NCBI GenBank assembly: GCA_963823725.1
Contig: CAWGMJ010000003.1
Coordinates: 45,649 to 109,648 of the forward strand
Length of the DNA stretch: 64,000 nucleotides
Origin: an uncultured delta proteobacterium
GTDB taxonomy: Bacteria; Desulfobacterota; Syntrophorhabdia; Syntrophorhabdales; Syntrophorhabdaceae
Direction: 5' to 3'
The first letter of the stretch is position 1. Each line of letters starts with the position of its first letter. The notes under the pieces are model-generated. The model was not told where the DNA came from. It was given only the letters and a program-made list of their open reading frames with translations, and did not search any database. The position numbers were made by a program, and so were the translations under genes. Below are positions 1,648 to 58,718 of the stretch, piece by piece.

Positions 1648-3902
1648 CTAATATTGGGTGCCGATTGCAAAATCGAAAAGACTCGTTCTCTCGTCTTCTT
1701 TGGGATTGAGGTTGAATCCGAATTCCAGGCGAATTGGGCCAAGCGGTGAGAACCAGCGTATGCCTGCTCCGGCTGAAGTCCTCATTCTCAGGCTGCTCCA
1801 GCTGTCAAAGCCGGCACCTGTATCAAAGAAGAGAACCCCTTTGACACCCGCTGGTTTATATATGGGGAAGATCCATTCGAAATTAAAGAACATCTGATTC
1901 TTGGCTCCGATGGGTTCGTCATTTTCATCCATCGGGCCGGCTTCACCATAGCGGAAGCCGCGAACAGAGTTGAGGCCGCCGACATAAAATTTCTCGGTAA
2001 TGGGGACCTCTTTGCCGTTGTATCCCCCGATGCTGCCCATGGTTCCCTTAACGAAGAACGAACTATCCATGAATTTGATGGGTATATACCTGCCGTAAAA
2101 GCCCGTAATGCTCACAAAGTCATTGTCGCCGCCAAGCGGGCCGCCGGCTGTTTCCAGGGTTATTCCCGTGTTGATCCCTTTGGTCGGGTTCATGATATCA
2201 TCGATAGTGTTCTTGTTAAGAGAAAATATCAAACTGCTCGTAAGGCTGGTGCCTTCCTGTTCCTTGATATATGTGCTGGCATCAGCGGCTATATTGGTTA
2301 CGTCCACATTTTCAAGGCGATACTTGACGGTGCCTTTGACGTTATCGGTCAATGGTTTGATAAGGGCGATATTGCCGCCCACTCTCTTGTAATCGTACGT
2401 ATCCAGGTAACGCTTGAAATTGAAAATACTGGTTCCCAGCGAAAGGTTTTTGTCAAATATGTACGGTTCGAGGTATGTCAGCCTGAACTCGTTGGTATAA
2501 CTGCTCAGTGCCGGCCTCAAGAGAGACCCTTCTGCCTGTGCCGAAGAAATTATCTTCCGATACGGACCCTGACACGATCACCTGTTCAGCCGTGCTGTAG
2601 CCGGCTCCGACACTGAAGGTCCCGGTAGGTTTTTCCTCGATAGCGAGATCGATATTTACTTTTTTCGGATCATCCGTTTTGAGGACCTTGAAATCGGTAT
2701 CTTTAAAGAATGTCGTATTTTTAAGTTTCTTCTTACTTTCTTTAATATTGGTTATGGAGAACCGGTCACCTTCCGCAAATTTCAGTTCACGCCTGACGAC
2801 CTTGTCGCGGGTCCTCGTATTTCCCACAATATTTATCCTGTTAAAGTATACTTCCTGATTTTTGGTGATATTGAACGTGGCATTGACAATATGGTTGTAT
2901 CGTCGATCATCGTTAGTGGGAGAAACCTCGGCAAAGGCATATCCCATATCCTGATAAATATCGGTCAGGGCCAGAACATCTTCATAAAATACCGTGGTCC
3001 TGAACATCTGGCCCGGTTTTGTTTTTATCCTCTTAAGAAGCTCTTCCTGAGGAATAATGATATCACCGGCAAATTCGATGGTGCCGACCTTATGGATGAC
3101 GCCTTCTTCGATCGCCGTGGTGATCGAGATGCTTTTGCCATCTTTTGACATCGTGACTTCGGGAACCCCTACCTGGACCTTGGTGTACCCGTTATCGTGA
3201 TAAAAGGCCTCAATGTTCCTGCGGTCCTGGCCCAGTATATCTTCATCAAGTATACCGGAACCGGTGAACCATGAAAGAATACCTTTTTCCTTGGTCTGCA
3301 TGTAGCCCTTTAACTTGCTGTCCTTAAAATGCTTATTGCCTGTAAAAGCGATCTTCCTTACATAGGACTGCTGAGGTTCGTCAATGACGAAGGTGACGGT
3401 AGCGTCATATTTTTCGCCGTAGTCGATATTGCATATGTGACCCTGGCAGCATAATATCCTTTGCTGGAATACAACTTCCTGATCTCATCCATGCTTTCTT
3501 TGACTTTTTCAATATTGAGAACGGTTCCGGTCTTGATCTTTACCTTGTCGATAAGATCATCTGTTTTTATCTTTTTGTTCCCGGACACCAGGATGGATTT
3601 TACGGGAGGCCTTTCGATAACGACAAATGTGACGGCTTTCCCTTTTTCGGTATCCCTGATATCGATCTGGACATCGCTGAAAAAGCCCGTCTTGTAAATA
3701 TTTTTCATATCCTCGCGTATCTTGTCGAGGTTATACGCGTCGCCTTCCTTTGATCTTGATATTGTTTGTGATAACGGCAGTATCAACCCGTTCGTTTCCC
3801 GTAACTTCAACCTTTGCGACCCGTTCGGATTCCTGGGCGGGAACAATGACAGGAAGGCACAGAATCAGCAGGAAGAAGATGAGGACCTTTCAATTTTTTC
3901 AT
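1648..3902 (-). CDS. bamA: Outer membrane protein assembly factor BamA, at least 4 frame breaks
   Basis: Signal peptide recoverable from the ATG at 3902 (MKKLK / VLIFFLLILCLPVIVPAQE). POTRA-type repeats in pieces 3358-3846 and 2453-3301. C-terminal Omp85 barrel piece 1648-2520 ends ...FDFAIGTQY. Confidence 0.85.
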
Positions 3903-5184: not shown

Positions 5185-5741
5185 GTCGTAAAGCGTAAAA
5201 CGTAAAACGTGAAACGTAAATAGTAAATGCGGATTGCGTGTGAAGTAGTTACGTTTTCCCATCGCCTATCACCCATCTTACCCATTACTATCTCATCACC
5301 CATCACCTCCCTTATCCATAACTGCATTTCATCCGCATGCGATCCTTCCCAGTATACTTTGCGGCATGACGGACAGGTCTTGAACGTCATTATGATGATG
5401 ATAGATATACTCGGGAACAAAGGGTTCTATATCTTCTTTTTCTGACCGCGACCAGGAGAACGTTGCATTCTATGCACCGGGTCATAACCGCGGCTGGATC
5501 TATATATGGTTCTATGTATTCCTTTATTTCCAGGACCTGTTCCCGGGGGTCGTTGCTGTGGACCATAGATGGTGCCGGGACGGCCTGCTTTCGCAGCTGC
5601 TCTTTGTAAAAGAAGAAATGTGTGCCTTCCTTCGGAGGCGGACCGCGGGCTTTCTCCCTGCCGTATGTAAGGGGCGTCAAGCCCCAGCATCCTGAGATAC
5701 CGGGCGAGTTTGCCGAGCATTACGTCGCATATGAAGATCAT
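5181..5741 (-). CDS. Mut7-C (DUF82) PIN-like RNase domain protein, 2 frame breaks, 3' end uncertain
   Basis: N-terminus MIFICDVMLGKLARYLRMLGLDA is typical of Mut7-C. C-terminal zinc ribbon (CIECN...CPSCRKVYWEGSH). ATG overlaps the mtaD stop (ATGA). The last frame runs through repeat 5186-5307. Confidence 0.7.
5186..5307. repeat. Heptamer arrays of two different types back to back (GTAAAAC type, then CCCATCA = GGTGATG type on the other strand)
   Basis: GTAAAGC GTAAAAC GTAAAAC GTGAAAC GTAAATA GTAAATG (5189-5229). Short partner TAGTTACGTTTT (5246-5257). Then CCCATCGCCTATCACCCATCTTACCCATTACTATCTCATCACCCATCACC (5258-5307). Confidence 0.8.
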
Positions 5742-7750: not shown

Positions 7751-9929
<2,179 letters not shown>

Positions 9930-10154: not shown

Positions 10155-12182
10155 ATGAATCAGGAGAGAATTAAGATAAACTTGATATCTTTACTCTATC
10201 TCTGCGTTGTTCTTATTCTGTTAACCCTGCCATCAGTGTCCCGTGCAGAAGAACCTGAGACAAGGACGCCGTCCGATCTTGCTCAATTGCCCATTGAAGA
10301 ATTAATGGGAGTCGATGTTTCGACAGTGCTCGGCGCCTCGCGATACGAACAGCGCATCTCGGACGCGCCGGCACCCATAAATATTGTCACGTCGGAAGAT
10401 ATCAAATGGTACGGTTACCGTACCATGGCGGATATTTTAAACAGTTTACCCGGCCTGTACGTGACCTATGACAGGAACTACAATTATCTTGGATCGGGTG
10501 GGTTTTTACGGCAGGGCGATTACAACACGAGGATGCTGCTGCTCGTCGATGGGCACAGGATCAACAATAACATCTACGATACCGCAACGATCGGCCGGGA
10601 ATTTATCCTCGACGTCGACCTGATAGACCGGGTCGAGGTAATTCACGGGCCGGGGTCATCGCTCTATGGGAGCAATGCATTCTTTGGGGTTATCAATGTC
10701 ATAACAAAGACAGTTTCCCACATAAAAGGAGTGGAAATATCCGCTGAGATAGCCAGCTTCGACACGGACAAGGAAAGGGCAAGCTTCGGGCGCAAATTCG
10801 GAAATGGGCTGGAGATGTTGTTTTCGGCAACCCGGTACCGCAGCATGGGACAGGATTTTCAATATAAGGAATATACCGGTCCGGAAACGAACTTCGGCCG
10901 GTCGGACAATAATGATCTCGAGAAATATTCTTCATTTTTCACCAATATCAAATACGCGGGGTTAAACGTACAGGGTGCATACGGAAGCCGGACCAAAACC
11001 ATCCCGACCGGCGCCTGGAACACCGTATTCAATGATGATCGAACAAACACAGCCGATGAGCAGGGGTATATAGATCTGAAGTATCAAAAAAAGTTCGAGA
11101 ACTCGAACGACCTCACTATGCGGCTTTTTTACGATTATTACCGGTATGACGGGAAATATGTCCTCGATTACCCGCCGGTTACAATGAACAAAGACATTGC
11201 GGTCGGCAAATGGTGGGGTGCAGAAGGCCACTATACGGCCCGGATAGCCGGCCGCCATACGGTAATAGGCGGTATCGAATACCGCGATAATTTTGTTCAG
11301 CAGCAAAAAAATTACGACGAAAATCCGTATGCGGGTTACCTTGACGACAACCGGTCATCGTACAGCGTCGGCGCATATGCCCAGGGCGAGTTTATCCTGA
11401 CCGATACGCTGCTCATCAATGCCGGCGGACGTTATGACCACTATAAAGACTTCCAGGGCAACTTAAGCCCCCGGATCGCACTCATCTATACCCCGTTTGA
11501 AAAGACCACCATCAAGCTCATATATGGGGAAGCATACCGCATACCGAACACATACGAACTTTATTACACCGACGGTAATATTTCCCAAAAGGCCAACCCC
11601 GGCCTTGATCCGGAGAAGATCCGGACATATCAGGTCGTTTTAGAAAAATATTTTAAAGGTTTTCGAACGGCTGTCACAGGTTTTTACTATGACGTGGAGA
11701 ACCTTATCAGCCTTGAAACGGATGTTGACGGCCTGATGGTCTTTAAAAATACTGCGCGCGCTGAAGGTAAGGGAATCCAATTCGAGATCGAGAAAAAATG
11801 GCCCGTTGGGATTGGAGGCCGGTTTTCATATTCATACCAGGAAGTAGGCAGCAATGAGGAAAATATCAGTTTCAAAAATTTCCCAAGGCATCTGGCCAAG
11901 TTGAATATATTCAGCCCGTTGATCAAGAACAAGCTCAGTGCAGGCTTCGAACTGCAGTATGTAAGCCCCCAGCAGAATCTCAATACGACCAGTGATGGGG
12001 GTTATACCCTTATAAATACTACATTCCTGAGCGACAGGATCATCGGCAACCTGGACCTGTCCTTCAGTATTTACAATCTTCTCGATAAGAAATACAGCAA
12101 CCCTGCATCCCGCGAACATATTCAGAGCGATATAGGGCAGGATGGCAGGGCATTCAGGTTTAAAGCGACATACCGGTTCTGA
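10155..12182 (+). CDS. TonB-dependent outer membrane receptor
   Basis: Signal peptide, plug domain (ISDAPAPINIVTSEDIKWYGYRTMADILNSLPGLYV), long beta-barrel, terminal ...FRFKATYRF. Confidence 0.9.
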   Translation: MNQERIKINLISLLYLCVVLILLTLPSVSRAEEPETRTPSDLAQLPIEELMGVDVSTVLGASRYEQRISDAPAPINIVTSEDIKWYGYRTMADILNSLPGLYVTYDRNYNYLGSGGFLRQGDYNTRMLLLVDGHRINNNIYDTATIGREFILDVDLIDRVEVIHGPGSSLYGSNAFFGVINVITKTVSHIKGVEISAEIASFDTDKERASFGRKFGNGLEMLFSATRYRSMGQDFQYKEYTGPETNFGRSDNNDLEKYSSFFTNIKYAGLNVQGAYGSRTKTIPTGAWNTVFNDDRTNTADEQGYIDLKYQKKFENSNDLTMRLFYDYYRYDGKYVLDYPPVTMNKDIAVGKWWGAEGHYTARIAGRHTVIGGIEYRDNFVQQQKNYDENPYAGYLDDNRSSYSVGAYAQGEFILTDTLLINAGGRYDHYKDFQGNLSPRIALIYTPFEKTTIKLIYGEAYRIPNTYELYYTDGNISQKANPGLDPEKIRTYQVVLEKYFKGFRTAVTGFYYDVENLISLETDVDGLMVFKNTARAEGKGIQFEIEKKWPVGIGGRFSYSYQEVGSNEENISFKNFPRHLAKLNIFSPLIKNKLSAGFELQYVSPQQNLNTTSDGGYTLINTTFLSDRIIGNLDLSFSIYNLLDKKYSNPASREHIQSDIGQDGRAFRFKATYRF

Positions 12183-16863: not shown

Positions 16864-17763
16864 ATGATGGAGCTCATTAAAAATACGAAAATAGATTTTG
16901 TCGGCCTGCGAAAAACAGCGTTTATTATTTCCGCGGTCCTGGTAGCAATAGGGGTCTTCTCCTTCATAATGATATCCCTGGGAAAGGCAAACCTCAGCAT
17001 AGATTTTACCGGCGGCACAAATGTTCAGGTCAGGTTTGCCGAGAAGGTCAACATAGGGGATTTAAGGCACGCCCTTGAGTCAGGCGGGATAAGTGATGTG
17101 CAGATACAGGAAGTAAGCGGAACCCGCGACTTTTTTATCAAGACAAAGCTGTCAGATACGGAGAAGGAATCCGTTGGGTCGAAGATAACAAACATTCTTT
17201 CCACGCAATTGAAAGGCGCGAAGTTTGAAGTGCTGGGAAGCAACATGGTCGGGCCGGGCGTTGGCCAGTCGCTTAAGAAATATGCGATCATCGCAGTGAT
17301 CCTGGCACTGCTCGGAATTATCGTTTATATTGCATGGAGGTTCACGTTCGTATCAGGCATAGCCGCAACGATAGCGACCTTCCATGACGTTCTGGTTATC
17401 TGCGGCGTCTTCTATTTCCTTGGCAAGGAATTCAATCTTCTTATCATTACAGCCTTGTTGACGATAGCCGGATACTCACTCCAGGATACGGTCGTCGTCT
17501 TTGACCGCATACGTGAAAATTCAGCGAAAATGAAATCGCGTGATGATTTCGGGAATATCATCAACGTCAGTATTAACGAGGTCTTGAGCCGGACGATAGT
17601 CACCGGTATCACGACCCTCATAAGCCTTGCGGCCATAATGATATTCGGCGGTGAAGTGCTCTTCGATTTTGCCTTTGCCCTGTTTCTCGGTCTGATCGTC
17701 GGAACCTATTCTTCAATTTTCGTTGCAAGCCCGATCGTATACGCGTGGCGGAAAAAGATTTGA
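16864..17763 (+). CDS. secF: Protein translocase subunit SecF
   Basis: Intact 299 aa. IDFTGGT motif; TIAGYSLQDTVVVFDRIREN. Confidence 0.95.
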   Translation: MMELIKNTKIDFVGLRKTAFIISAVLVAIGVFSFIMISLGKANLSIDFTGGTNVQVRFAEKVNIGDLRHALESGGISDVQIQEVSGTRDFFIKTKLSDTEKESVGSKITNILSTQLKGAKFEVLGSNMVGPGVGQSLKKYAIIAVILALLGIIVYIAWRFTFVSGIAATIATFHDVLVICGVFYFLGKEFNLLIITALLTIAGYSLQDTVVVFDRIRENSAKMKSRDDFGNIINVSINEVLSRTIVTGITTLISLAAIMIFGGEVLFDFAFALFLGLIVGTYSSIFVASPIVYAWRKKI

Positions 17764-17767
17764 GAAG

Positions 17768-19204
17768 ACAGTGAGGAGTGAGGAGTAAATAGTAAGGAGT
17801 TAATTCTTGGTAATTTATTCGGGAAAATAGCTAACAATTTCTACCGGTACATCGGTTACACTTTTCGATTTCATGCTGCCCGGCCTGTTATAGATCTGCC
17901 TCAAGGGCAGTCTTTCGAGAAAATCCTGAATCCTTAGTTTGTTTTCCATGAACCGCCCTATCAGCAGGTCGCAGAAGTATAAATCATACACGCCATCACC
18001 TTTTTGCTCAAGGCCGATATATTACCCGCCAAGGGAACGATTTACAAAAGCAAACTCATTCTTCCACCGGATGCAGGAGTTATTGTGGCTCAAACGCCGT
18101 ACCTGTAAGTGCAGGGGATAATCGAATTGACAGAGCTTCCGGGGCATCGTTCTCGGGGATGATATATAGAGAGATCCGGGTGTTTTCTGGCCCAGGGACT
18201 AATGAGGCCTTATCTAGTTATATTCCCTGCGAGAGTTAACGACTCGTGTGGGCTGTGTACCTTATGTCTTTTTGGGGAGGTATAGTTGCCTCTTCCTTCA
18301 ATGTCTTGTGAATCCTTTCATGATGTGAATATTGCTCTGGGTTTCTGTGTTCTGACTGCTAGGGGTATATGCTGAGACTGACCTACTAGAAGGACAGGGA
18401 AGACAGGCGTGATATCGCATTCGATGCGAAGAGAACCCTGTTACCGCTGCGTATCTTCCGGGGCAGCCCGTATTACTCGAAGAGCCGGGTAAAGCAAAGC
18501 TTCGTCTTCGCAAAGGAGAAAGTATCATGGGCGTCAATCCCGAAGAGGAACCTGGTCTTTATGTTGCACACGGTAAGCGGGTAACAGTAGATGCCGTTTC
18601 TCATCCGGAACTGGCCCTTGTAATAGGAGATTCATATATCGATGGGTTACACTGCAATGGCCCGCGTGCACCCGGGGAGTCTGCGCCTTATTTTCTTCAC
18701 AGGCTTTACGAGGCCATGGCGCTTGAGGATGTCCGATGCGGTGGAGGCGGCGGGAAGGGAGGGATACCGGGAGGACAGACGGGCGAGCATATTCTTGGGC
18801 CCCCACGTGAGGTGTTTCCTTTTCTCCTTCACGATGGCCTCTATGATCTCTTCACCGGTCCTGTGCGGGCAGGAAAGGGGACTTCTCGGCCTGTCCATGA
18901 GGCCTTTGGGACCTTCTGAAAGATATCTCTCAACCCACTTGTACCCGGTCTTTCTGCTGATGTTGAATTCCTGGCATAGTTCTCTAAAGAAGAGATCATC
19001 CTCGAGGTATTCTCTGATAAACCTTTAATTTCTGATCCATATTTGGTAACTCCATTTCATGCCATAGACACCTCCTGAAAGGCAACTATGCATGATACAA
19101 AAAGTGTTACCCATGTACCCGGATTATTTTGTTACCCGGATCGTCTCATCAATCAGCGTTCGTTTGTAATGTAAAATTGTTTTAAACTCCTCACTCCTCA
19201 CTGT
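17768..19204. repeat. Heptamer-array inverted repeat, GTGAGGA type, split by an IS element (arms 17768-17800 and 19186-19204)
   Basis: Left arm ACAGTGAGGAGTGAGGAGTAAATAGTAAGGAGT. Right arm ACTCCTCACTCCTCACTGT is its reverse complement. Lies between the convergent 3' ends of secF and the Smr gene. Confidence 0.85.
17822..19143 (-). mobile_element. Decayed IS481-family insertion sequence (~1.3 kb) with a multiply disrupted transposase
   Basis: Terminal inverted repeats, each a doubled GTGTAACC-N-ATGT-N-CCGG motif (17841-17861; 19104-19143). N-terminal HTH recoverable (MDQKLK..ELCQEFNISRKTGYKWVERYLSEGPKGLMDRPRSPLSCPHRT..KHLTWGPKNMLARL..ASTASDILKRHGL). DDE core and C-terminus (...ERLPLRQIYNRPGSM) survive only as fragments with stops. 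Confidence 0.7.
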
Positions 19205-19879
19205 TCACCCAATTATCGTTATTTTCTTTTTTTGGGGTTTATTTCTCAGAAGGATGTAGGTTGCTCCGGGGCCGCCTTCGGGCATTACGGCATTGGAGAA
19301 TGCGGTCACCCATTTTCGGTGCATGGCCCGTACTATCCATGTTTTCAAGTAGTCTTTGATTATCGGTGCCCTTTTTGATTTCAGTCCTCGCCCGTGGATG
19401 ATCTTGATGCATCTGAGGTTCTTTTTTATAGCTTCGCTCAAAAAATATTCAAAATGTTCGCGGGCGCTTTCGATCGATAGCCCGTGAAGGTCGACAACCT
19501 GTTGTACTGAAAACTCGCCATCACGGAGCTTTTCCATGACAAGGGGGCTCACGCCCTCTGCATAGCCTTCCATGTATTCGGGAAGGTTCGTCACATTGAT
19601 CGTATTGCCGTCTGCCAGAATGCTCTTGAGAAGCCGTTCTTCGTCGCTTTCTTTGCCGGCATCCGACACAATGGGCGTTTCTCTCTTATTGCGGACACGG
19701 TTATCGCGTTTACGGATGGTACGGACATCCTTCATTGCCTGGCTGAACAAAACTTCGTCATCCTCCGGCCGAGGTTCACTTTCGGGAAGCGGCGGTTCCT
19801 TTTGGAGCCGTATATGACGTTCTCTGAGGAATTGAGACAGGTCGGCAAATGGCTTGTTTATCGAATCTTTTCCGTCCAT
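19205..19879 (-). CDS. Smr (MutS2-related small endonuclease) domain protein
   Basis: C-terminal Smr domain: VVDLHGLSIESAREHFEYFLSEAIKKNLRCIKIIHGRGL... Confidence 0.8.
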   Translation of the reverse strand: MDGKDSINKPFADLSQFLRERHIRLQKEPPLPESEPRPEDDEVLFSQAMKDVRTIRKRDNRVRNKRETPIVSDAGKESDEERLLKSILADGNTINVTNLPEYMEGYAEGVSPLVMEKLRDGEFSVQQVVDLHGLSIESAREHFEYFLSEAIKKNLRCIKIIHGRGLKSKRAPIIKDYLKTWIVRAMHRKWVTAFSNAVMPEGGPGATYILLRNKPQKKKITIIG

Positions 19880-22779: not shown

Positions 22780-23043
22780 GTTCAACGTTCAATGTTCAAC
22801 GATCAACGATCTGGGGAGTGAACGGAATGACTCGAACAGATAAGTTACACAATTAGTCCGAGCATTGCAGGTGCAGGCACCCGGCTTGGTAGGTTCTGAG
22901 GCCGAAGATACCCAATAGCTGGAAAATCGCTCAGTTCACGATGTCGTGACACATTTTTTAGTCTACGATGTCGTGACACTTACCACATAGAAAGTAGAAC
23001 AAGAACGTAACGTTTGCACCTTGAACGTTTGAACCCTTGAACT
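22780..23043. repeat. Heptamer-array inverted repeat, GTTCAAC type, with IS-derived core
   Basis: Left arm GTTCAACGTTCAATGTTCAACGATCAACGATC. Right arm ...CCTTGAACGTTTGAACCCTTGAAC. Between the convergent 3' ends of trmI and the LOG gene. Confidence 0.85.
22812..23004 (-). mobile_element. MITE-like remnant related to the end of the IS481-like element
   Basis: GTTACAC-aattagtccgag...cacccggcttggtaggt aligns with the C-terminal/IRR region of the IS at 17841-17900. Also 2 x CACGATGTCGTGACAC direct repeats (22936-22951, 22964-22979). Confidence 0.55.
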
Positions 23044-24684: not shown

Positions 24685-26044
24685 ATGAATACTGAAATAT
24701 TCAGGGAATATGACATCAGGGGAGATGTTGAGCGTGACCTGACGGATGACGTCGTACGGAATATAGGCAGAGCGTTCGGGTCATACATGGCATCTGCCGG
24801 AAAAAAGAAGGCATCCATCTGTCGTGACTGCCGTTTGAGTTCCGAACACTACAGGGACATCCTCGTAGAATCAATGACCGGGGCCGGCCTTGAGGTCACG
24901 GATATCGGTCTTGCGCCGACACCCCTGTTTTACTTCTCGCTCTTCACCCTGGATGTCGAAGGCGGCATCATGGTCACAGGCAGTCATAACCCGCCGACCA
25001 TGAACGGTTTCAAAGTTGCCGTCGATAAAGCGACCATTTATGGCGACCAGATACAGGACCTGCGAAAGATCATCGAAGCCGGAAAATACGTATCGGCCAA
25101 AGGATCATACAGGGAATACAGAGATATCGTAACAGGATTATTATACTTATCTCCGTTCGAACATTAGTCTTGGAAAGAATTTCAAAGTGGTTATCGATGC
25201 GGGGAACGGTACGGGCGGAGTGATAGCGGCCCCCATAATGCGGGAATTCGGCCAGAACGTCACCGAGTTATTTTGCGAAATGGACGGTCATTTTCCCAAC
25301 CATTTCCCTGACCCGACCGTAGAGGCAAATCTTGTGGCCCTTCGTGATACCATCCTCAGGGAAAAGGCCGATGTCGGGATCGGTTATGACGGCGATGCGG
25401 ACAGGATCGGTGTTGTTGACGAAAAAGGCGGTATCATCTGGGGTGATTACCTCATGCTTATTTTTGCGCGGCAGATCCTCAAGGAGCACAAGGGAGGAAC
25501 TTTTATCTCCGAAGTGAAATGTTCGAGGAATCTGTTTGACGATATAGCGAAGCGCGGCGGATAGCCCATAATGTGGAAGGCCGGCCATTCACTCATTAAG
25601 CAGAAGATGAAGGAAACCCACGCATTGATGGGCGGGGAAATGAGCGGCCACATTTTCTTTGCCGACCGTTTCTTCGGCTATGACGACGCAATATACGCGT
25701 CTTTACGGTTCCTTGAAATAATGGAGCGCGATGGCAGGCCGGTATCTGAATTTTTAGGCGACCTTCCGAGAACATACTCGACCCCGGAATTGCGCGTTGA
25801 CTGCCCGGATAATGTAAAGTTCAAAGTTGTCCGCGAATTGACCGAACTTTACCGGTCAAAATACCCTATCATTGACACGGACGGTGTCAGGGCGACCTTC
25901 GATGGCGGCTGGGGACTCGTGAGATCTTCCAATACCCAGCCGATCCTCGTTCTGCGCTTCGAGGCCGGCACGCCCGAAGGCCCTCGACCGGATAAAGAAC
26001 ATCGTCATGGAAGATCTGGAAAAGATAAAAAGGAAATAGTTTAA
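24685..26044 (+). CDS. Phosphomannomutase/phosphoglucomutase, at least 3 frame breaks
   Basis: FREYDIRG start; active-site loop VTGSHNPPTMNGFK; metal loop GIGYDGDADRIGVVD; GGEMSGHIFF. Pieces 24685-25167, 25187-25564, 25571-26044. Confidence 0.85.
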
Positions 26045-26046
26045 AT

Positions 26047-26100
26047 CGTAAGGCGTGAGGCGCATAAACTCACATTACTTTAACACCTTACGCCTTACGG
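26047..26100. repeat. Heptamer-array inverted repeat, GTAAGGC type, 'empty' (short loop)
   Basis: CGTAAGGCGTGAGGCG - 21-nt loop - CACCTTACGCCTTACGG, directly after the phosphomannomutase stop. Confidence 0.8.
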
Positions 26101-33243: not shown

Positions 33244-34333
33244 ATGAGCTTCTCATGTGGTTTTGTAGGCCTGCCAAATTCAGGAAAATCAACTATTTTT
33301 AATGCGCTGACATCTCTTGCCGTTCCATGCCAGCCGTATCCCTTTTGTACGATCGACCCGAACGTGGGTGTAGTTCCCGTCCCGGACCGCACGTTGTTTC
33401 GCCTGGCCGAGCTTCTGAAGCCCGAAAAGGTGATTGAAACCACGATCCAATTTGTCGATATTGCCGGCCTTATCAAGGATGCCCACAAAGGCGAGGGTCT
33501 TGGCAACCGGTTCCTTGCCCACATCAGAAATGTCGATGCAATAGCCCACGTGATCCGGGCATTCAGTGCGGGCCAGGTGCCCCACGTATATGAGGATATC
33601 GATCCTGCCAGGGATATGGATATTGTCGAAACTGAGATAATCATCTCGGACCTGGAGATAGTTGAAGACCGCATCAAGAAGATCGAACGCCTTGCAAAGA
33701 TCTCCAAAGACAAGGGCGAAACAGAAATGGAGCTTCTCTCCCGGATAAAAAGATACCTCGATGCCGGCCGTTTCGTGGCGATGGAAGATTTTGACGAATC
33801 CGAGCGGCATATCATCCATGGCTTCGACCTGATAACAACAAAACCGCTTTTTTATATCGCCAATGTCGATGAAGACACCCTTGCCGGCATACCCGTTCCC
33901 GAGGATCGAAAACGCCGCGAATGAGCGCAACCGTGAGGTTGTCTACATATGCGGCAAACTTGAGCAGGACCTGAGCCTTCTCCCGGAAGAAGAGCGTTCC
34001 TCATACATGGAATTATATGGAATGAAGGAATTCTCGATCGAAAAGATAATCCACGTTGGCTACCAAATTTTGAACCTGATTACTTTTTACACGATCGTGG
34101 GAAAAGTAATGCGTGCCTGGACGATCCCGCGGGGAACACCCTGCGTCAAGGCGGCCGGCAAGATCCATACTGACATGGAAAAGGGATTCATACGGGCAGA
34201 GGTCATAAATATTGATGATTTCATCGCCTGCGGAAGCGAACACACGGCGCGCGAAAAAGGGATGCTGCGGCTGGAAGGGAAAGAATACATAGTACAAGAC
34301 GGAGATATCCTCCATATCCGCTTTAACGTCTGA
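33244..34333 (+). CDS. ychF: Ribosome-binding ATPase YchF, one frame break near 33900
   Basis: P-loop GFVGLPNSGKSTIFNALT; DIAGLIKDAHKGEGLGNRFL; C-terminal TGS-like piece 33863-34333 (...ITFYT..G....AWTI..GT.CV.AAG.IH.DMEKGFIRAEV). Confidence 0.9.
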
Positions 34334-38928: not shown

Positions 38929-39011
38929 GTTCAACGATCAATGATCAACGATCAAGATCAATGTTCGATTTGTTAAGAACATTGAACTGTATGAACATTG
39001 AACTATTGAAC
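38929..39011. repeat. Heptamer-array inverted repeat, GTTCAAC type, 'empty' hairpin
   Basis: GTTCAACGATCAATGATCAACGATCAAGATCAATGTTC - ~10-nt loop - GAACATTGAACTGTATGAACATTGAACTATTGAAC. Between the pstB stop and the SPFH start. Confidence 0.85.
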
Positions 39012-39017
39012 TATTTC

Positions 39018-39770
39018 TTACCCATACCTGCCCGTTATATATCCTTCAGTCTGTTCCTCCCGGGGCGAGGTGAATATTTGCGAGGTATCACCGAATTCAA
39101 CGAGAACGCCGAGCAACATAAAGCCGGTGTAGTCGGAGACCCGGGCCGCCTGCTGCATGTTATGGGTAACAATAAGGATCGTGTACCGTTCCTTGAGTTC
39201 GATCATGAGTTCCTCGATCCTCAGTGTGGCAATGGGATCGAGGGCAGAGCAGGGTTCATCGAGGAGGATGATCTCGGGTTCCACAGTGAGGAGACGGGCA
39301 ATGCACAGACGCTGTTTCATTTCCTCTGAAAGATCGAGCGCCTGTGTATGAAGCTTGTCCTTTAATTCTTCAAGAAGCCCGACCGAATGAAGGCAGCGGT
39401 CCACGATCTCTCTCATCGTTTTCCTGTTAGCCATTCCGTGCACCTTAAGCCCGTATACCATGTTTTCATAGATCGTGAACGGAAAAGGGTTGGGACGCTG
39501 AAAGACCATACCGACTTTCTTTCGCAGGTTGATTATGTCGATATCCTGCAGCGGTTCATTATGAATGTAAATGCCGCCTTCTATCCGGACATCTTCCTGG
39601 AGATCGTTCATGCGGTTAAAGCAACGGAGAAGGGTTGATTTTCCGCATCCGGAGGGGCCTATAAGAGCTGTAATCGCCCGGGAATACACATGGAAATCGA
39701 CATCCTTGAGAGCGTGGAATTTCCCGTAATGAAGATTAAGTTTCTCGGTCCTGAGGGCGAATTTGTCCAT
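39018..39770 (-). CDS. pstB: Phosphate ABC transporter ATPase PstB (copy 2; degenerate signature motif)
   Basis: Walker A GPSGCGKST, Q-loop GMVFQRP, Walker B ILLDEP, H-loop VTHNMQQAAR, C-terminus TEGYITGRYG. The signature position reads LSEEMKQR instead of LSGGQQQR. Confidence 0.9.
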   Translation of the reverse strand: MDKFALRTEKLNLHYGKFHALKDVDFHVYSRAITALIGPSGCGKSTLLRCFNRMNDLQEDVRIEGGIYIHNEPLQDIDIINLRKKVGMVFQRPNPFPFTIYENMVYGLKVHGMANRKTMREIVDRCLHSVGLLEELKDKLHTQALDLSEEMKQRLCIARLLTVEPEIILLDEPCSALDPIATLRIEELMIELKERYTILIVTHNMQQAARVSDYTGFMLLGVLVEFGDTSQIFTSPREEQTEGYITGRYG

Positions 39771-50255: not shown

Positions 50256-52211
50256 ATGGAAGAAGTAGATCCATTATTCGGACAATTATCCGGTATCCAG
50301 TTATTCACGCTCTTCAGTCATGCAAGCCATGAGGGAATTCTGCTTCTCGATGACAAAGGAAAGATCGTTTACGCCAATTTGGCCGCGTTTACCATTACCG
50401 GCAGGGAGAAAGATCAGGGAGCAGGTCTCGGGGTCCATGAATTTCTGAGGCCCTGCAATTATTCCGCTGAGCAACGGCTTGATATGGCCATCACCGAAGC
50501 TTTGCCCGTTGCCTCATTGCCGGACAGACCAATCGGGTCAGATAATATCCTGGAACTATCGATAATGGGGAAAGGCGGCAAAGAAACTTCTATAGAATTA
50601 TCTCTTGCCTCCGAAAAAGTCGCAGGAAAATGGCATATCATGGTCTTTTTCAGGGATGTGACCGATAAAATAAAGGCCCGGGAATCCCTGCGAAAATCGG
50701 AAAGGAAATATAGAAAGCTGTTTGAGGATACCAAAGACGCGATTATCATGACAACGCCCGAAGGAAGGATCATAGATATAAACAGGGCGGGCCTGGAAAT
50801 GTTCGGGTACACGAGTAAAGACGAGATGATGAAACTGAATGTGGCCCGCGATCTGTACTTAATTCCCGAGGAACACGCAAGTTTCAGGGCGGGGATCGAA
50901 CGCTACGGGAGCGCGACCATGCACGATCTTTCGCTCAAACGCAAGGACGGAACAATGATCATGGTTTCGGTGACCGTAAATGCCGTCTACGATGAAGTGG
51001 GCGAGATCGTTGTTTTTCACGGCATAATGCGTGACATTACCGGTATCAGGCAGCTTGAACATCAGGTCGAGGTCTATCAAAAGATGGATGCAGTCAGAAG
51101 CTTGATAGGTGACATAGCGCACCACTTTAACAATATACTCAACATCATTGTCGGCAATGCGCAGCTTGCTAAAATATCCCCCGATTGCAGCGATCAGATA
51201 GGGTCCTATCTTTCCAGGATCGAGGACGAGGCTTTCACGGCCGCGGATATGGTCGATGAACTTCTGGCGTCAGGGTGTAAGCACCCGATGGATATGCACA
51301 CGGTGAATATCGTCGACATGGTGGGAGATTTTGAGAAGCTGATACGGAATGTTGTCGGCACCGGCATTTTATTGCTGGTGGCTTTTGCTGGCGAGCAGAT
51401 CCCGGTCAGGTTGGATATCGCGAGAATAGGCCAGGCGCTTCTCAACATCGTCGTCAATGCCCGCGAGGCCATGAACGGGGCGGGCACCTTAACGGTCCGG
51501 ATATATACAGAAGAAATAAAAGATCTTACGACATCGCTCGATGGCCAGATCACGCCCGGTCCGTATGCTGTCGTCTCCATAGCTGACACAGGACGTGGAG
51601 TTGATCGCACCCTGATCGACAAAATTTTCGAACCTTTTTTTACCACAGACACGTCCGGCGAGAAAAAAGGCCTCGGGCTCAGTGTGGTATTGGGGATTAT
51701 CAAGCAACACGGCGGATTCGTAATGTGCGAGAGCGAAGAAGGCAAAGGTGCGGTATTCAAGATCTATTTGCCGGTATCATCTGAAAGATCGAAGGAGCAA
51801 AAGTTTTTAGAAGAGGAAGAAGCGGGCGGCGCGGAAACCATTCTGATAGGCGAAGATGACGAGGCCTTGAGGAAGGTCACGTCAGAATACCTCGATAAGC
51901 TTGGTTATCGTGTCATCATGGCAGAAGATGGCAGGGAAGCCCTTGATATATTCCGGGAGCGGTACGGGGAAATAGATATAGCCCTCATCGATATTGCTAT
52001 GCCGGGCATGGGCGGGCTCGACGCATATCATGAGATAAAGCAGATAAAACCGCGCATTCCCGTATTGTTCATGACAGGGTACAATCTTGAAACCGCAAAC
52101 CTGAAGACGGCAACAGGCAAGGGGGGGATAAATGTGATCCGCAAACCATTCACAATGGCAGCCCTGGCAAGGAAAATAAGGGGAATCCTTGATAGAGACA
52201 GTGAAGAGTGA
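50256..52211 (+). CDS. Hybrid sensor histidine kinase (2 PAS, HisKA, HATPase, REC)
   Basis: H-box IGDIAHHFNNILNII; NIVVNAREAM; DTGRGV; GLGLS. Receiver ILIGEDDE...IALIDIAMPGMGG. Confidence 0.9.
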   Translation: MEEVDPLFGQLSGIQLFTLFSHASHEGILLLDDKGKIVYANLAAFTITGREKDQGAGLGVHEFLRPCNYSAEQRLDMAITEALPVASLPDRPIGSDNILELSIMGKGGKETSIELSLASEKVAGKWHIMVFFRDVTDKIKARESLRKSERKYRKLFEDTKDAIIMTTPEGRIIDINRAGLEMFGYTSKDEMMKLNVARDLYLIPEEHASFRAGIERYGSATMHDLSLKRKDGTMIMVSVTVNAVYDEVGEIVVFHGIMRDITGIRQLEHQVEVYQKMDAVRSLIGDIAHHFNNILNIIVGNAQLAKISPDCSDQIGSYLSRIEDEAFTAADMVDELLASGCKHPMDMHTVNIVDMVGDFEKLIRNVVGTGILLLVAFAGEQIPVRLDIARIGQALLNIVVNAREAMNGAGTLTVRIYTEEIKDLTTSLDGQITPGPYAVVSIADTGRGVDRTLIDKIFEPFFTTDTSGEKKGLGLSVVLGIIKQHGGFVMCESEEGKGAVFKIYLPVSSERSKEQKFLEEEEAGGAETILIGEDDEALRKVTSEYLDKLGYRVIMAEDGREALDIFRERYGEIDIALIDIAMPGMGGLDAYHEIKQIKPRIPVLFMTGYNLETANLKTATGKGGINVIRKPFTMAALARKIRGILDRDSEE

Positions 52212-52404
52212 GGAGCAAATAGTGAGGAGTAAATAGTGAGGAGTGAGGAGTGAGGATATCATTGAAAGACTGCCCTTGAGGCAGATATATAACAGACCGG
52301 GAAGCATGAACCCGGGGAGAGTGTAACCCATGTGTCCGGAATAAAGTGTAACCTATGTGTCCGGACCATACCCTCCTTACTATTTACTCCTCACTCCTTA
52401 CTGT
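52201..52404. repeat. Heptamer-array inverted repeat, GTGAGGA type, with IS-end remnant in the loop
   Basis: Left arm 52201-52256 (GTGAAGA GTGAGGA GCAAATA GTGAGGA GTAAATA GTGAGGA GTGAGGA GTGAGGA). Right arm 52371-52404 (CCCTCCTTACTATTTACTCCTCACTCCTTACTGT). Between the convergent kinase and serA stops. Confidence 0.9.
52259..52364 (+). mobile_element. Solo end remnant (transposase C-terminus plus IRR) of the IS481-like element
   Basis: Translates IERLPLRQIYNRPGSM..., matching the C-terminus recovered at 17880-17940. Followed by doubled GTGTAACC(C/T)ATGTGTCCGG. Confidence 0.7.
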
Positions 52405-52406
52405 CT

Positions 52407-54029
52407 CTACAGATGTATTTCCGTGGCTTCGATCATTCCGTCTATGGCGCGGATGTGTTTCAGGACGTCCGGGCCGATGGGGTCATCGACAGATATAAAC
52501 GCGACTTCCTCACCGCTTTGGATCCGGGATAGACTGAAACTCGCTATATTGATCCCATGATTGCCGAGGATAGTACCGACTGTGCCTATAACCCCCGGCC
52601 TGTCGATGATCTTGAACGCAAGGAATGTGCCTTCAGGTACCATGTCCAGGTGAAAACGGTCGAGAAGCACGATCCGCCCGAGCTTGTCAGGAAAGACGGT
52701 CCCGGCTATGCTGATCTCCTCGACATCGGTTTTCAGATTAAAGATTATCAGGTCATTAAATTTATCGAATGCGTCTGTTTTTGATTCTTCGACAACAATG
52801 TTGCGGTCCTTGGCCAGATAGGGGGCATTGATATATGTTACCGTACCCTGCAGGCTTACTTTGAGAAATCCGTTAAGGCCGGCGATGGTAAAGGGCTGGT
52901 AGCTGAACGGGACGTCAAATTTACGTTCACAAAGGTCTTCCTCGAAATTTTTCCCGACCATCACGACATTTATTTTTTCGGGCCGCCCCTTAGATATCTG
53001 GGCTGCGAACTTGCCTATTTTTTCCGCTACCTTAAAATAGAGTTGGAGATGATCGGGGAGGAGCGATGTCATAAACGGTATATTGACACCGTGCTGATAG
53101 GGCCGTCCGTGCAGGGCATTCAAGACCTGCTCGGCGATAATTGCCGATACGGCTTTCTGGCCTTCTGCGGTGTTGGCGCCTAAATGCGGTGTAACAAAAA
53201 CATTCTCGAGCGCGAGGAATTTTGTATTTGTAGGCGGTTCGTCGACAAATACATCGATACCTGCGGCAAATATCCTGCCTGACACCATGCAGTTATACAG
53301 GTCCTCTTCATTGACAATGCCGCCCCGGGCACAATTAACGAGAATGGCATCATCTTTCACAAGCGCCAGTTTCTCGGCAGTGATCATGTTATTGGTTATA
53401 GCTGTCAGCGGAGTATGGATGGTGATCACATCGGCTGTCTTTAAAAGGTCATCGAGGCTGTCGTAGAGGGTGACGCTCAGTGAGTCGGCTTTGCTTTTTT
53501 TAATGTAAGGATCGTACGCAATGACCTTCATCCCGAAAGCCCTGGCGCGAATGGCGACATTGCTTCCGATACGTCCGAGGCCTATAATGCCGAGTGTCTT
53601 ATTGTAAAGTTCGATCCCCATGAATTTCTTTCTGTCCCATTTTCCATCTTTGAGGGAATTGTTTGCGAGCGGGATCTTCCGGGCAGCAGTAAGTATCTGT
53701 CCCATCGTTAACTCTGTTGCAGCGAGCGTATTTCCTGTCGGGGCATTGAGGACAATAAGGCCCTTTTTACTGGCTGCTTCGATATCGATATTATCGACTC
53801 CGACACCGGCACGGCCGATTATCTTGAGCCGGCCCGGGTTTTCTACGAGGTCTTCCTTTATTGTCGTGCCGCTGCGGGTAATGATCGCATCATAATTGCC
53901 GATGATCTTTTTTAATTCATCGAGCTTTATGCCTGCCTGTACTTCAACTTCGACCTCATTATCCGCCGCGAGTATTTTGAGCCCTTCTTCGGCGAGATGA
54001 TCCGTGACCAAAATCTTGAATTTTTCCAT
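52407..54029 (-). CDS. serA: D-3-phosphoglycerate dehydrogenase (long form with ACT domain)
   Basis: Intact 540 aa. NAD motif GIIGLGRIGS. Catalytic region NCARGG..., C-terminal ASB and ACT domains. Confidence 0.93.
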   Translation of the reverse strand: MEKFKILVTDHLAEEGLKILAADNEVEVEVQAGIKLDELKKIIGNYDAIITRSGTTIKEDLVENPGRLKIIGRAGVGVDNIDIEAASKKGLIVLNAPTGNTLAATELTMGQILTAARKIPLANNSLKDGKWDRKKFMGIELYNKTLGIIGLGRIGSNVAIRARAFGMKVIAYDPYIKKSKADSLSVTLYDSLDDLLKTADVITIHTPLTAITNNMITAEKLALVKDDAILVNCARGGIVNEEDLYNCMVSGRIFAAGIDVFVDEPPTNTKFLALENVFVTPHLGANTAEGQKAVSAIIAEQVLNALHGRPYQHGVNIPFMTSLLPDHLQLYFKVAEKIGKFAAQISKGRPEKINVVMVGKNFEEDLCERKFDVPFSYQPFTIAGLNGFLKVSLQGTVTYINAPYLAKDRNIVVEESKTDAFDKFNDLIIFNLKTDVEEISIAGTVFPDKLGRIVLLDRFHLDMVPEGTFLAFKIIDRPGVIGTVGTILGNHGINIASFSLSRIQSGEEVAFISVDDPIGPDVLKHIRAIDGMIEATEIHL

Positions 54030-57544: not shown

Positions 57545-58568
57545 ATGTACACTATCGGAGTTGTGGGAGCAACGGGCTATACAGGCGTTGGCCTGATGTC
57601 CTTGCTCCTTACTCATCCCGATGCAAAAATAAGCCTTATCACATCGAATACATATCGGGGACGCAAAGTCTCCGATATTTTTCCCTTGTTTAAGGGGAGG
57701 TTCGAAGAAGTTCTCCAGCCTACCGATGATGATCACAGGGGTAAATGCGACGTTTATTTCCTGTGCCTGCCTCACGGAACGTCTATGGCAAAAGCCCGTG
57801 AGTTATATGACGGCAAGGCCTTGATCATTGACCTTAGTGCCGATTTTCGCTTTGAGAATATAGCGATGTACGAAAACGCTTACGTGCCGCATACCGCTTC
57901 CGAGCTTGTTCCCGATGCTGTTTTCGGATTACCGGAATTGTACAGGACACTGATCAAGGGGAAGAAATTGGTAGGCAATCCGGGATGCTACCCGACTTCT
58001 GCCATTCTCGCACTCTACCCCCTCATTAAAAATAATAAAATTGCGGGCGATATATTCATCGATTCGAAATCGGGAGTGAGCGGCGCGGGCAGGGAAGGGA
58101 AGATCGGCAGCCTGTTTTGCGAGGTTTCCGAGGGTTTCCGGGCATACAATGTCGGCGTGCACAGGCACGAACCGGAGATACAGAAAGAAGTTAACAAATA
58201 CATTCCGTCGAAGATCTCCTTTGTGCCCCACCTGGTCCCTATGTCCCGGGGCATTCTCACCACAGTGTACGGCAGGCTGTCCGGGCAGGAAAAGACCGCC
58301 GACATCATTTCTCTCTATCCGTGAAACCTATAAGGATGACCATTTCGTCCGCATCATGGACGAAAACATATATCCCGACACCCGGTTTGTCCGGTTTTCG
58401 AATTATTGCGATATCGGCCTCAAAGTCCTCGATGACGGCCGGATCGTGATCATCTCAACGATCGACAATCTCGTTAAAGGCGCCTCCGGCCAGGCCGTCC
58501 AGAATATGAACGTCGCTCTCGGGCTTGACGAGAGACTAGGTCTGTCCGCCATCCCGCAGTATCCATAG
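57545..58568 (+). CDS. argC: N-acetyl-gamma-glutamyl-phosphate reductase, one frame break near 58310
   Basis: IGVVGATGYTG; active-site Cys in NPGCYPTSAILAL; C-terminal piece 58149-58568 (...NLVKGASGQAVQNMN). Confidence 0.9.
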
Positions 58569-58574
58569 AAGACA

Positions 58575-58718
58575 GGTTATGGGTTATGGGTGATAGGTGA
58601 TGGAAACACTTTTACCATCAATCTTATTCGCAATTAATAATAGATATAGAGGATTAAGAATTACTCCGGGATAGTTTTGCCGTTCCTATTACCCATAACC
58701 TATTACCCATCACCCATC
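58575..58718. repeat. Heptamer-array inverted repeat, GGTGATG/GGTTATG type, with an unrelated ~80-nt core
   Basis: Left arm GGTTATGGGTTATGGGTGATAGGTGATGG. Right arm CCTATTACCCATAACCTATTACCCATCACCCATC. Between the convergent stops of argC and the UPF0104 gene. Confidence 0.85.

Follow-up and report, generated by a model that had tools for sequence, protein, structure and literature searches.

Stop-bearing heptamer palindromes at gene ends in an uncultured Syntrophorhabdaceae bacterium

Introduction

Eight loci at which tandem arrays of 7-nt units stand at gene ends, at seven of them as pairs of inverted and locus-specific arms, are described here from an uncultured delta proteobacterium of the Syntrophorhabdaceae. 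They lie in 64,000 nt of DNA (GenBank assembly GCA_963823725.1, contig CAWGMJ010000003.1, positions 45,649 to 109,648; G+C content 48.8 %), which as a whole is called the window. The reading that we put forward, with belief and doubt about balanced, is that the loci are extragenic palindromes with stems of tandem 7-nt units, like repetitive extragenic palindromic (REP) sequences and like short tandemly repeated repetitive (STRR) sequences, i.e. 3′-end hairpins that were built by slippage and are tolerated or selected at gene ends. The focal locus, at 52193–52409, lies between a PAS/histidine-kinase/receiver gene and serA.

Since 2007 it has been known that heptameric repeats are in excess in bacteria, an observation still unexplained, and the papers on TAACTGA (MacGregor 2015, PMC4679880) and on GGGAATC (Rehm et al. 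2015, PMC4692102) each treat one unit. As far as the work cited in these two papers goes, both the excess and the hypothesis of 7-nt slippage are established.

Results

The focal palindrome

The inverted repeat of the focal locus extends over 52193–52409, correcting the 52201–52404 of the initial annotation, and takes in the serA stop codon as well as the final codons and the stop of the kinase gene. Its left arm (52193–52256, plus strand) consists of a non-repeated foot, TAGAGACA, and eight heptamers in the order GTGAAGA, GTGAGGA, GCAAATA, GTGAGGA, GTAAATA and three times GTGAGGA, and the TGA (52209–52211) of the kinase gene (50256–52211) lies inside it. On the minus strand the right arm (52373–52409) reads TAGAGACAGTAAGGA, GTGAGGA, GTAAATA, GTAAGGA, G. 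The outer TAG of this arm (52407–52409) is the stop codon of serA (52407–54029, minus strand), the product of which is 73–93 % identical to proteins from metagenome-assembled genomes of Syntrophorhabdaceae.

When folded, the region 52190–52412 gave −91.4 kcal/mol, with z-scores against shuffles of −7.9 on the plus and −8.7 on the minus strand. The z-scores were −6.3 for the 26047 locus, −5.4 for the 58575 locus and −3.6 and −5.2 for the 38929 locus. The arms had been said to match each other at every locus except a chimeric one, 5186–5307, and this was borne out: the latter has two unlike arrays facing each other and forms no hairpin (z −0.8), and the other seven are inverted, locus-specific pairs. 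In an all-against-all comparison the best partner of each left arm was the right arm of its own locus or of another locus of the same type. At the focal locus the order of the unit variants is mirrored between the arms, with a score of 29 against 21.3 ± 2.9 for unit-order shuffles, of which 4 in 300 reached it. Arm complementarity was therefore better than that of cross-locus pairs and, at the focal locus, better than that of shuffled arrays. A repeat search of the window listed no other local inverted repeats of comparable length, which supports the proposed reading. In being imperfect extragenic palindromes that are repeated in the genome, the loci share a trait with REP sequences and with REPINs (REP doublets forming hairpins).

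Array inventory and unit types

Arrays were defined by a period of 7 nt, at least three units and at least 80 % self-match, and were sought with Tandem Repeats Finder and a separate period scan. All eight loci of the initial annotation were recovered, and the window held no further locus of at least three units. Nine period-7 arrays were counted compared to 0.1 in shuffles, and none of the periods 5, 6 and 8–11 was enriched over shuffles of the window. The background set was formed by 80 unrelated metagenome contigs (994 kb) from a LigA scan, with LigA relatives of at most 71 % identity. They contained on average 2.2 period-7 arrays per 64 kb, 66 of the 80 having none and a few having many. 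In two unrelated metagenome contigs, L144 (13.5 kb) and L147 (10.5 kb), dense heptamer arrays of many unit types were seen, with 9 and 8 array calls, respectively, some of them overlapping; such packing indicates that certain genomes carry the trait in concentrated form.

Apart from overlap with final codons, all eight loci lie outside genes. Two traits of STRR-type repeats were thus found, namely tandem 7-nt units above chance and a lineage-specific occurrence in non-coding DNA. A third, one or few unit sequences genome-wide, was not, since at least five unit types occur within 64 kb, each at one or two loci: GTGAGGA at 17768 and at the focal locus, CGTAAGG at 7751 and 26047, GTTCAAC at 22780 and 38929, GGTGATG at 58575 and in the right half of 5186, and CGTAAAA once.

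The differences in the three variable nucleotides between loci speak against the arrays being bound by a protein (cold-shock, S1 or CsrA-like) that recognises single-stranded nucleic acid with a 7-nt footprint and acts on the 3′ untranslated region, as has been proposed for TAACTGA. We regard this explanation as highly improbable, even though a 7-nt periodicity and a conserved GTRA within the unit, both held across loci and phyla, would suit it, CspB binds heptamer repeats with one protein per unit (reviewed in PMC4679880), and GGA is included in the GTGAGGA and GTAAGGC units. Pairing of the arms with each other would hide single-stranded sites, arrays of the GTTCAAC and GGCTAAC types have no GTRA motif, and the protein partner is a hypothetical candidate only.

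Stop codons and gene context

Each of the eight loci contacts a stop codon and four lie between convergent genes, both as originally described. The convergent pairs are secF and an Smr-domain gene (17768), tRNA methyltransferase-like and LOG-like genes (22780), the kinase gene and serA (focal locus), and asd-like and lysyl-phosphatidylglycerol (LPG)-synthase-like genes (58575). The loci 7751, 26047 and 38929 stand between co-directional genes, downstream of the ligA, phosphoglucomutase-like and ABC ATPase genes, respectively, and the 5186 locus ends a short open reading frame (ORF). Placement relative to genes is thus non-random. In four cases the stop lies inside the array (kinase gene, 52209; ligA, 7932; LPG-synthase-like gene, 58703; the ORF ending at 5189).

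A recount of the reading frames agreed with the earlier one: 52201–52256 closes all three, and one frame stays open in each of 7751–7798 and 5258–5307. The six GTRA-type loci have twelve arms, and on the strand that an incoming ribosome reads these close two or three frames; in 10 of the 12 the opposite strand closes none. It had also been claimed that every unit contains a stop codon on one strand, which is true; in the two GTTCAAC loci, however, it lies on the strand not read by incoming ribosomes.

Comparison with related genomes

The two GTGAGGA loci share their outer ends, as had been proposed, with 31 of 32 bases identical between 17768 and the reverse complement of 52404. The adjoining relic of an insertion sequence (IS), described below, is only 66 % identical between the same loci (P = 3e-5), and the arms must therefore have been constrained or homogenised.

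At the 3′ end of serA the relatives differ in what they carry. In L004 and L005 (SerA 93 % identical) there are GTGAACA, GTAAATA and GTAAGCG units, in L002 and L003 (86 %) GTAATAG units at which the contigs end, and in L212 and L213 (80 %) ACAGTTTCAA(N) arrays with a period of 8. L001 (89 %) has no array and only 7 nt between the converging stops, and no heptamer arrays were found in its 21.6 kb. Compared to this empty site, the focal locus replaces 19 nt without a target-site duplication. The arrays have also overwritten the final codons of two genes: the kinase ends in ..ILDRDSEE* instead of ..ILDQQI* in L001, diverging from the focal left arm onward, and the LPG synthase in ..KKMGDG* instead of ..QKLEE*.

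At the same convergent sites the 80 %-identity relatives keep a palindrome whose units differ in sequence and period. At these sites, the palindrome is long-lived while its sequence, and even its period, turns over. The palindromes at 3625–3765 in L212 and at 11618–11712 and 3578–3700 in L213 have 8–9-nt units (GTTTCAAN, GCTTGAACN) and occupy the same convergent gene ends, some of them with A- and T-tract flanks like those of bidirectional terminators; one L213 palindrome is flanked by A5 and T7 and shaped in this way. At the asd/LPG site of L213, GATGGGTGA is present once at the gene end, and the same sequence is the unit of the window arm 58685–58718. The single copy in L213 suggests, from the sequence comparison, that the window array at the LPG gene end was seeded locally, from sequence including the stop codon.

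The short-read contigs of L002 and L003 stop about 46 bp past the serA stop, beyond a short GGTAATR array, which fits with assembly being interrupted by arrays of this kind or by a repeat next to them.

These comparisons bear on a simpler explanation, that the arrays are a neutral or selfish by-product of a heptamer slippage bias and palindrome-templated repair in permissive spacers, with purifying selection filtering location only. We think this possible, though doubtful. Unit turnover at the serA site is rapid, the window, L004, L002 and L212/L213 all being different, L001 lost its palindromes without replacement, and the trait is patchy and genome-specific, as the 66 of 80 unrelated contigs without arrays and the few with many indicate. 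The non-complementary arms at 5186 and the lack of a U-tract fit as well, and 7-nt slippage has already been put forward for the heptamer excess in literature that PMC4679880 and PMC4692102 cite. A by-product would not be expected to leave arms 31/32 identical beside a neutral IS relic at 66 %, nor a palindrome at the same convergent sites in relatives of 80–93 % identity despite sequence turnover, nor the strong head-to-head bias (24:4 among the matches listed) reported below.

An IS481-family element in the loops

The loop of the 17768 locus contains a decayed full-length IS481-family element of about 1340 bp (17809–19148, minus strand). Its transposase is a pseudogene, a single frame (about 17900–19066) with many in-frame stops, and the best match is an intact 402-aa protein with 80 % identity. 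The homologs carry helix-turn-helix (HTH) and rve (DDE) domains (PF00665, PF13011 and others, precomputed for the homologs). The traits of the IS481 family were thus found, the HTH/rve transposase via the homologs and terminal inverted repeats around an element of about 1.0–1.4 kb, the ends of which begin TGTA.. or GGTA...

The core of the focal locus (52257–52372, plus strand) is a 3′ relic (~116 bp) of such an element, made up of what is left of the final ~15 codons of the transposase and of the right inverted repeat, in which there are two motifs of the form GTGTAACC..GTCCGGA; it ends ..GGACCATACC at 52372. It aligns with the 17768 copy (z 38.8), with the core of the 7751 locus (z 22) and with intact IS ends from metagenomes (L128, L131). 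Both the focal and the 7751 core represent the final ~110–116 bp of the element, ending ..GGAYCATACC, and the latter opens on the plus strand with the reverse-complemented terminus of the right inverted repeat, GGGTATGATCC, flush with the edge of the array. At the focal locus the junction of left arm and relic falls at a microhomology, GGA(TATC), which fits an internal deletion of the IS. In the 22780 core, one 25-nt block resembles the 7751 core (z 7.4), and BLAST gave no match to the IS copies for this core or for the loops of 58575 and 5186. At least three loci out of eight (17768, focal, 7751) therefore have an IS481 copy or relic in the loop, and a fourth (22780) shows a weaker trace. Of the architecture that had been proposed, i.e. 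a run of units, a loop or core and an inverted run, the paired type-specific arms stand, but the core of several loci is IS481 material. The focal core was also considered as the element's own loop, and this was rejected on the alignment with IS481 3′ ends.

In the window, and likewise in the independent metagenome copies L126–L129 and L131, 0–10 nt separate the right end of the IS from a TYAC-oriented array. Arrays beside these intact relatives are of other unit types (GGCTAAC in L126–L129). In L127 a complete palindrome adjoins the IS, and in L131 the IS lies between a GTRAACA array and a TYACGAC array. As the units differ among loci with homologous IS ends, and four loops have no IS-related sequence, the arrays are not part of the IS. 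In our reading an IS481-family element targets the palindromes, in a lineage-specific way: two IS relatives at 55 % identity (L216, L217) have no arrays at their flanks, and conserved targeting is not supported there. In the literature as far as it was covered, a search on IS481 target specificity returned no report of a right end placed repeatedly beside heptamer arrays.

Two further candidates were discarded. Subterminal transposase-binding repeats of the IS do not explain the heptamers, since the units vary, four loops are IS-free and the arms lie outside the IS inverted repeats, and stacked 7-bp target duplications would be direct, while the arms are inverted.

The same data make it unlikely that the loci are non-autonomous mobile palindromes, like REPINs or MITEs (miniature transposable elements with inverted repeats), which were copied to gene ends by a transposase encoded elsewhere or were carried or targeted by the IS481-family element. 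The IS is inside the palindromes and not around them, its 55 %-identity relatives have no flanking arrays, and the only transposase identified near the loci, in a window ORF screen that was not exhaustive, is the IS481 pseudogene. The types have no terminal sequence in common, the focal locus replaced 19 nt of the L001 empty site without target-site duplication, and the single GATGGGTGA copy at the L213 gene end suggests local seeding. Mobility would nevertheless explain why types occur twice in 64 kb with common outer ends and order of unit variants, why presence varies at orthologous sites, why gene ends were overwritten rather than extended, and the 0–10 nt between IS right end and TYAC array in the window and in L126–L129 and L131. 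A MITE proper was ruled out, because the focal locus has no target duplication, the IS ends (TGTACGAAC.. / ..GGATCATACC) are within the palindromes and the arms are unrelated.

Occurrence across phyla

A cross-phylum scan for five GTRANNN units, with one genome per species, gave at least 120 loci compared to about 35 chance matches expected collection-wide, as estimated from the information content of the pattern. The following applies to the matches listed. More than 10 phyla are represented, the main carriers being Cyanobacteria, Chloroflexota, Bacteroidota, Acidobacteriota, Planctomycetota, Verrucomicrobiota, Desulfobacterota, Nitrospirota, Omnitrophota and the candidate phyla radiation, with few Proteobacteria, Firmicutes or Actinobacteria. 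Cultured carriers include Terrimonas ferruginea, Chryseobacterium contaminans and Halonatronum saccharophilum. The three variable bases of the unit are locus-specific. An inverted partner within 600 nt lies downstream of the GTRA strand (head-to-head) in 24 cases and upstream in 4. One hundred arrays were usable. An ORF of 300 nt or longer ends at the array in sense in 44 and in antisense in 10, compared to 7.7 % for random positions, and in 23 of the 44 the array's own TRA is the stop.

Individual examples across phyla resemble the window loci. In an Anaerolineales genome (L078, about 3134–3215) a GTRA palindrome fills the spacer after a 1923-nt ORF, the stop of which is the first TAA of the array. 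The downstream ORF begins MATKRDYYDILGV, and by eye the gene pair resembles dnaK/dnaJ.

The other seven loci

At the 17768 locus the left arm (17768–17799, plus strand) is of the GTGAGGA type and starts 4 nt past the secF stop, and the right arm (19186–19204, minus strand; 19 nt, 100 % complementary) adjoins the TGA of the Smr-domain gene (19205–19879, minus strand). The 7751 locus has CGTAAGG-type arms at 7751–7798 (plus strand) and 7908–7937 (minus strand), the second containing the ligA stop (7932–7934), around the IS481 3′-end relic (7799–7907, minus strand). A minimal CGTAAGG hairpin at 26047–26100, with a loop of 20 nt between arms of about 17 nt each, starts 5 nt past the stop of the phosphoglucomutase-like gene. 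The GTTCAAC palindrome at 22780–23043, between convergent genes, has arms at 22780–22811 and 23009–23043, and a GTTCAAC/GATCAAC hairpin (38929–39011) lies between the stop of the ABC ATPase gene (39018–39770, minus strand) and an SPFH gene. The GGTGATG/GGTTATG palindrome at 58575–58718, also between convergent genes, has arms at 58575–58604 and 58685–58718, and the right one includes the TAA (58703–58705) of the LPG-synthase-like ORF. At 5186–5307 the two convergent, non-complementary arrays are CGTAAAA (5186–5227, plus strand) and GGTGATG (5258–5307, minus strand), and an ORF terminates in the first TAA of the former (stop at 5189).

A non-repeated (A)GACAG(T) is seen at the outer foot of several arms (17762–17772, 52195–52202, 52400–52407, 58569–58575) and is also kept directly past the serA stop in L004, L212 and L213 despite their differing units. 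A near-perfect isolated palindrome, ATTACTTTTTACACGATCGTGGGAAAAGTAAT at 34079–34110, has no relation to the heptamer family.

The asd-like gene (57545–58568), otherwise conserved, has a frameshift near 58318, and the phosphoglucomutase-like gene (24685–26044) is split into several ORFs. Such broken conserved genes suggest sequencing indels or pseudogenes. As the window has indels or frameshifts, the occasional 8-nt units may be sequence errors.

Discussion

If the arrays are slippage-built 3′-end hairpins, replication slippage would add and remove units, and intrastrand template switching, gene conversion or selection on the hairpin would keep the arms alike. Arrays would survive only where a change of ±7 nt is harmless, that is past a stop or ending at one, with stops in all sense frames. 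The long hairpin could then structure the 3′ end of the transcript for either of the converging genes or for both, by helping termination, blocking exonucleases or insulating, though not in the manner of a canonical U-tract terminator, and in this lineage the palindromes would also be sites at which one IS481-family element preferentially lands.

Hairpin terminators or insulators, protein-binding arrays and mobile palindromes were all suggested at the outset. All three are still live. The loci do not have the form of canonical intrinsic terminators, with loops of 12–1400 nt and stems that are long but not G+C-rich. A T-run follows the stem at 7751 (GGTTTTT), weakly at 38929 and 58575, and at orthologous L213 palindromes. 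Canonical sites of hairpin and T-run are not enriched in the window, which favours the proposed reading, and a promoter scan showed no enrichment there either. Of the Rfam families only two tRNAs were recognised in the window. The highest-scoring hit at the focal locus was a plant microRNA hairpin with 18 bits against a gathering score of 64, and nothing emerged by E-value either.

A number of observations weigh against the reading of slippage-built hairpins with a role at gene ends. A consensus terminator scan flags none of the eight loci, no T-run follows the stem at the focal locus (..ACTGTCTCTACAGATG) and most others, and a function of the arrays at the RNA level is something that we infer. 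The 5186 locus has arrays and no hairpin. L001 has lost both syntenic palindromes, and the element is therefore dispensable there. Loci of the same type share outer ends and order of unit variants, so that slippage in situ is insufficient on its own and some copying between loci must have taken place. The stops of the two GTTCAAC-type loci are on the outward-reading strand, and therefore a pure fail-safe-stop function cannot cover the whole family; arrays of relatives also have their stops on the outward strand. In the cross-phylum counts the antisense number is skewed downward, since ORFs can pass the TYAC strand without a stop, and in a small unbiased sample only half of the heptamer arrays contained a stop codon, which makes the stop-bearing GTRA class a large subset of heptamer arrays and not all of them. 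Finally, the indels and frameshifts in the window mean that single-base detail of the arrays is to be read cautiously.

The window and the at least 120 loci suggest a uniting rule, namely a conserved (G)TRA stop, sense arrays at gene ends and partners that face one another. A bolder reading, which we think less likely than not, is a pan-bacterial and hitherto undescribed GTRA 3′-end module in which the sense arm closes every frame and forms, with its inverted partner, a long hairpin shared by converging genes, kept by selection or concerted evolution rather than by chance slippage, and used as a target by an IS481 subgroup in some lineages. If the rule is true genome-wide, it would provide a 3′-end element that can be tested for effects on termination and mRNA stability, for insulating convergent transcription and for buffering frame changes, and also a structural target for an insertion-sequence family. 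In practical terms, such arrays break short-read assemblies, as with L002 and L003, which end in them, and shift annotated gene ends.

REP sequences and the bacterial interspersed mosaic elements (BIMEs) built from them are short, imperfect, multi-copy palindromes after stop codons, frequently located where genes converge; they may stabilise the 3′ end of mRNAs or act as terminators and are targets of some ISs. REP stems are not tandem arrays, and they have a conserved GTAG/CGTC head and a transposase of their own (REP-associated tyrosine transposase, RAYT). No such head is present at the window loci, the arms of which begin ACAGTRA, CGTAAGG, GTTCAAC or GGTTATG with no common head, and among the flanking ORFs scanned, in 64 kb of the genome, no RAYT (IS200/IS605-like) transposase was seen beside the loci. 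A catalogued REP or MITE family with its own transposase, which would have accounted for the loci, was not identified. The integron attC core (GTTRRRY), the target sites of IS608/ISDra2 (TTAC, TTGAT) and DNA uptake sequences in inverted pairs may bear a resemblance to the loci, next to which neither an integron integrase nor an HUH transposase was noticed. STRR units (for example CCCCAGT, TTGGTCA and CAACAGT) are few sequences used genome-wide.

To the initial annotation no described element with paired, locus-variable and stop-containing heptamer arms was known. In the literature as far as it was covered, we found no description of arms that are paired at the 3′ ends of genes and present their stops in sense, nor of a locus-variable, head-to-head GTRA rule at 3′ ends or a link to IS481; paired and stop-bearing precedents do exist. 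To judge from the citations in PMC4692102 and PMC4679880, cyanobacterial STRR and the heptameric excess of long simple sequence repeats (Mazel 1990; Mrázek 2007) are, like the present arrays, lineage-specific proliferations of heptanucleotides in non-coding DNA, ascribed to polymerase slippage. The GGGAATC repeats of Xanthomonas form 70–75 convergent array pairs per genome with stem-loop potential (Rehm et al. 2015, PMC4692102). They resemble the window loci as intergenic heptamers in opposite-strand pairs, with lengths that vary among closely related genomes while the type of pair is retained. They differ in having a single genome-wide unit, which is G-rich with G-quadruplex potential and has no stop codon, in that only 16 % lie between convergent genes, and in that an IS association is not reported. 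The TAACTGA repeats of Beggiatoaceae, Cyanobacteria and Bacteroidetes (MacGregor 2015, PMC4679880) likewise close all three forward frames, some overlap the end of the upstream ORF, and their phyla overlap with those of the GTRA arrays. They are, however, one unit, almost always direct (1 of 170 inverted) and mostly just upstream of start codons, which suggests translational regulation. The IS of the window, which is loop content only, is like other members of the IS481 family in its size of about 1.34 kb, its ends and the domains of its homologs, and the right end repeatedly adjoining heptamer arrays is a feature of the elements found here. The diversity of types within one genome, the rule of stop orientation and the behaviour of the palindromes as an IS landing pad thus go beyond the published cases.

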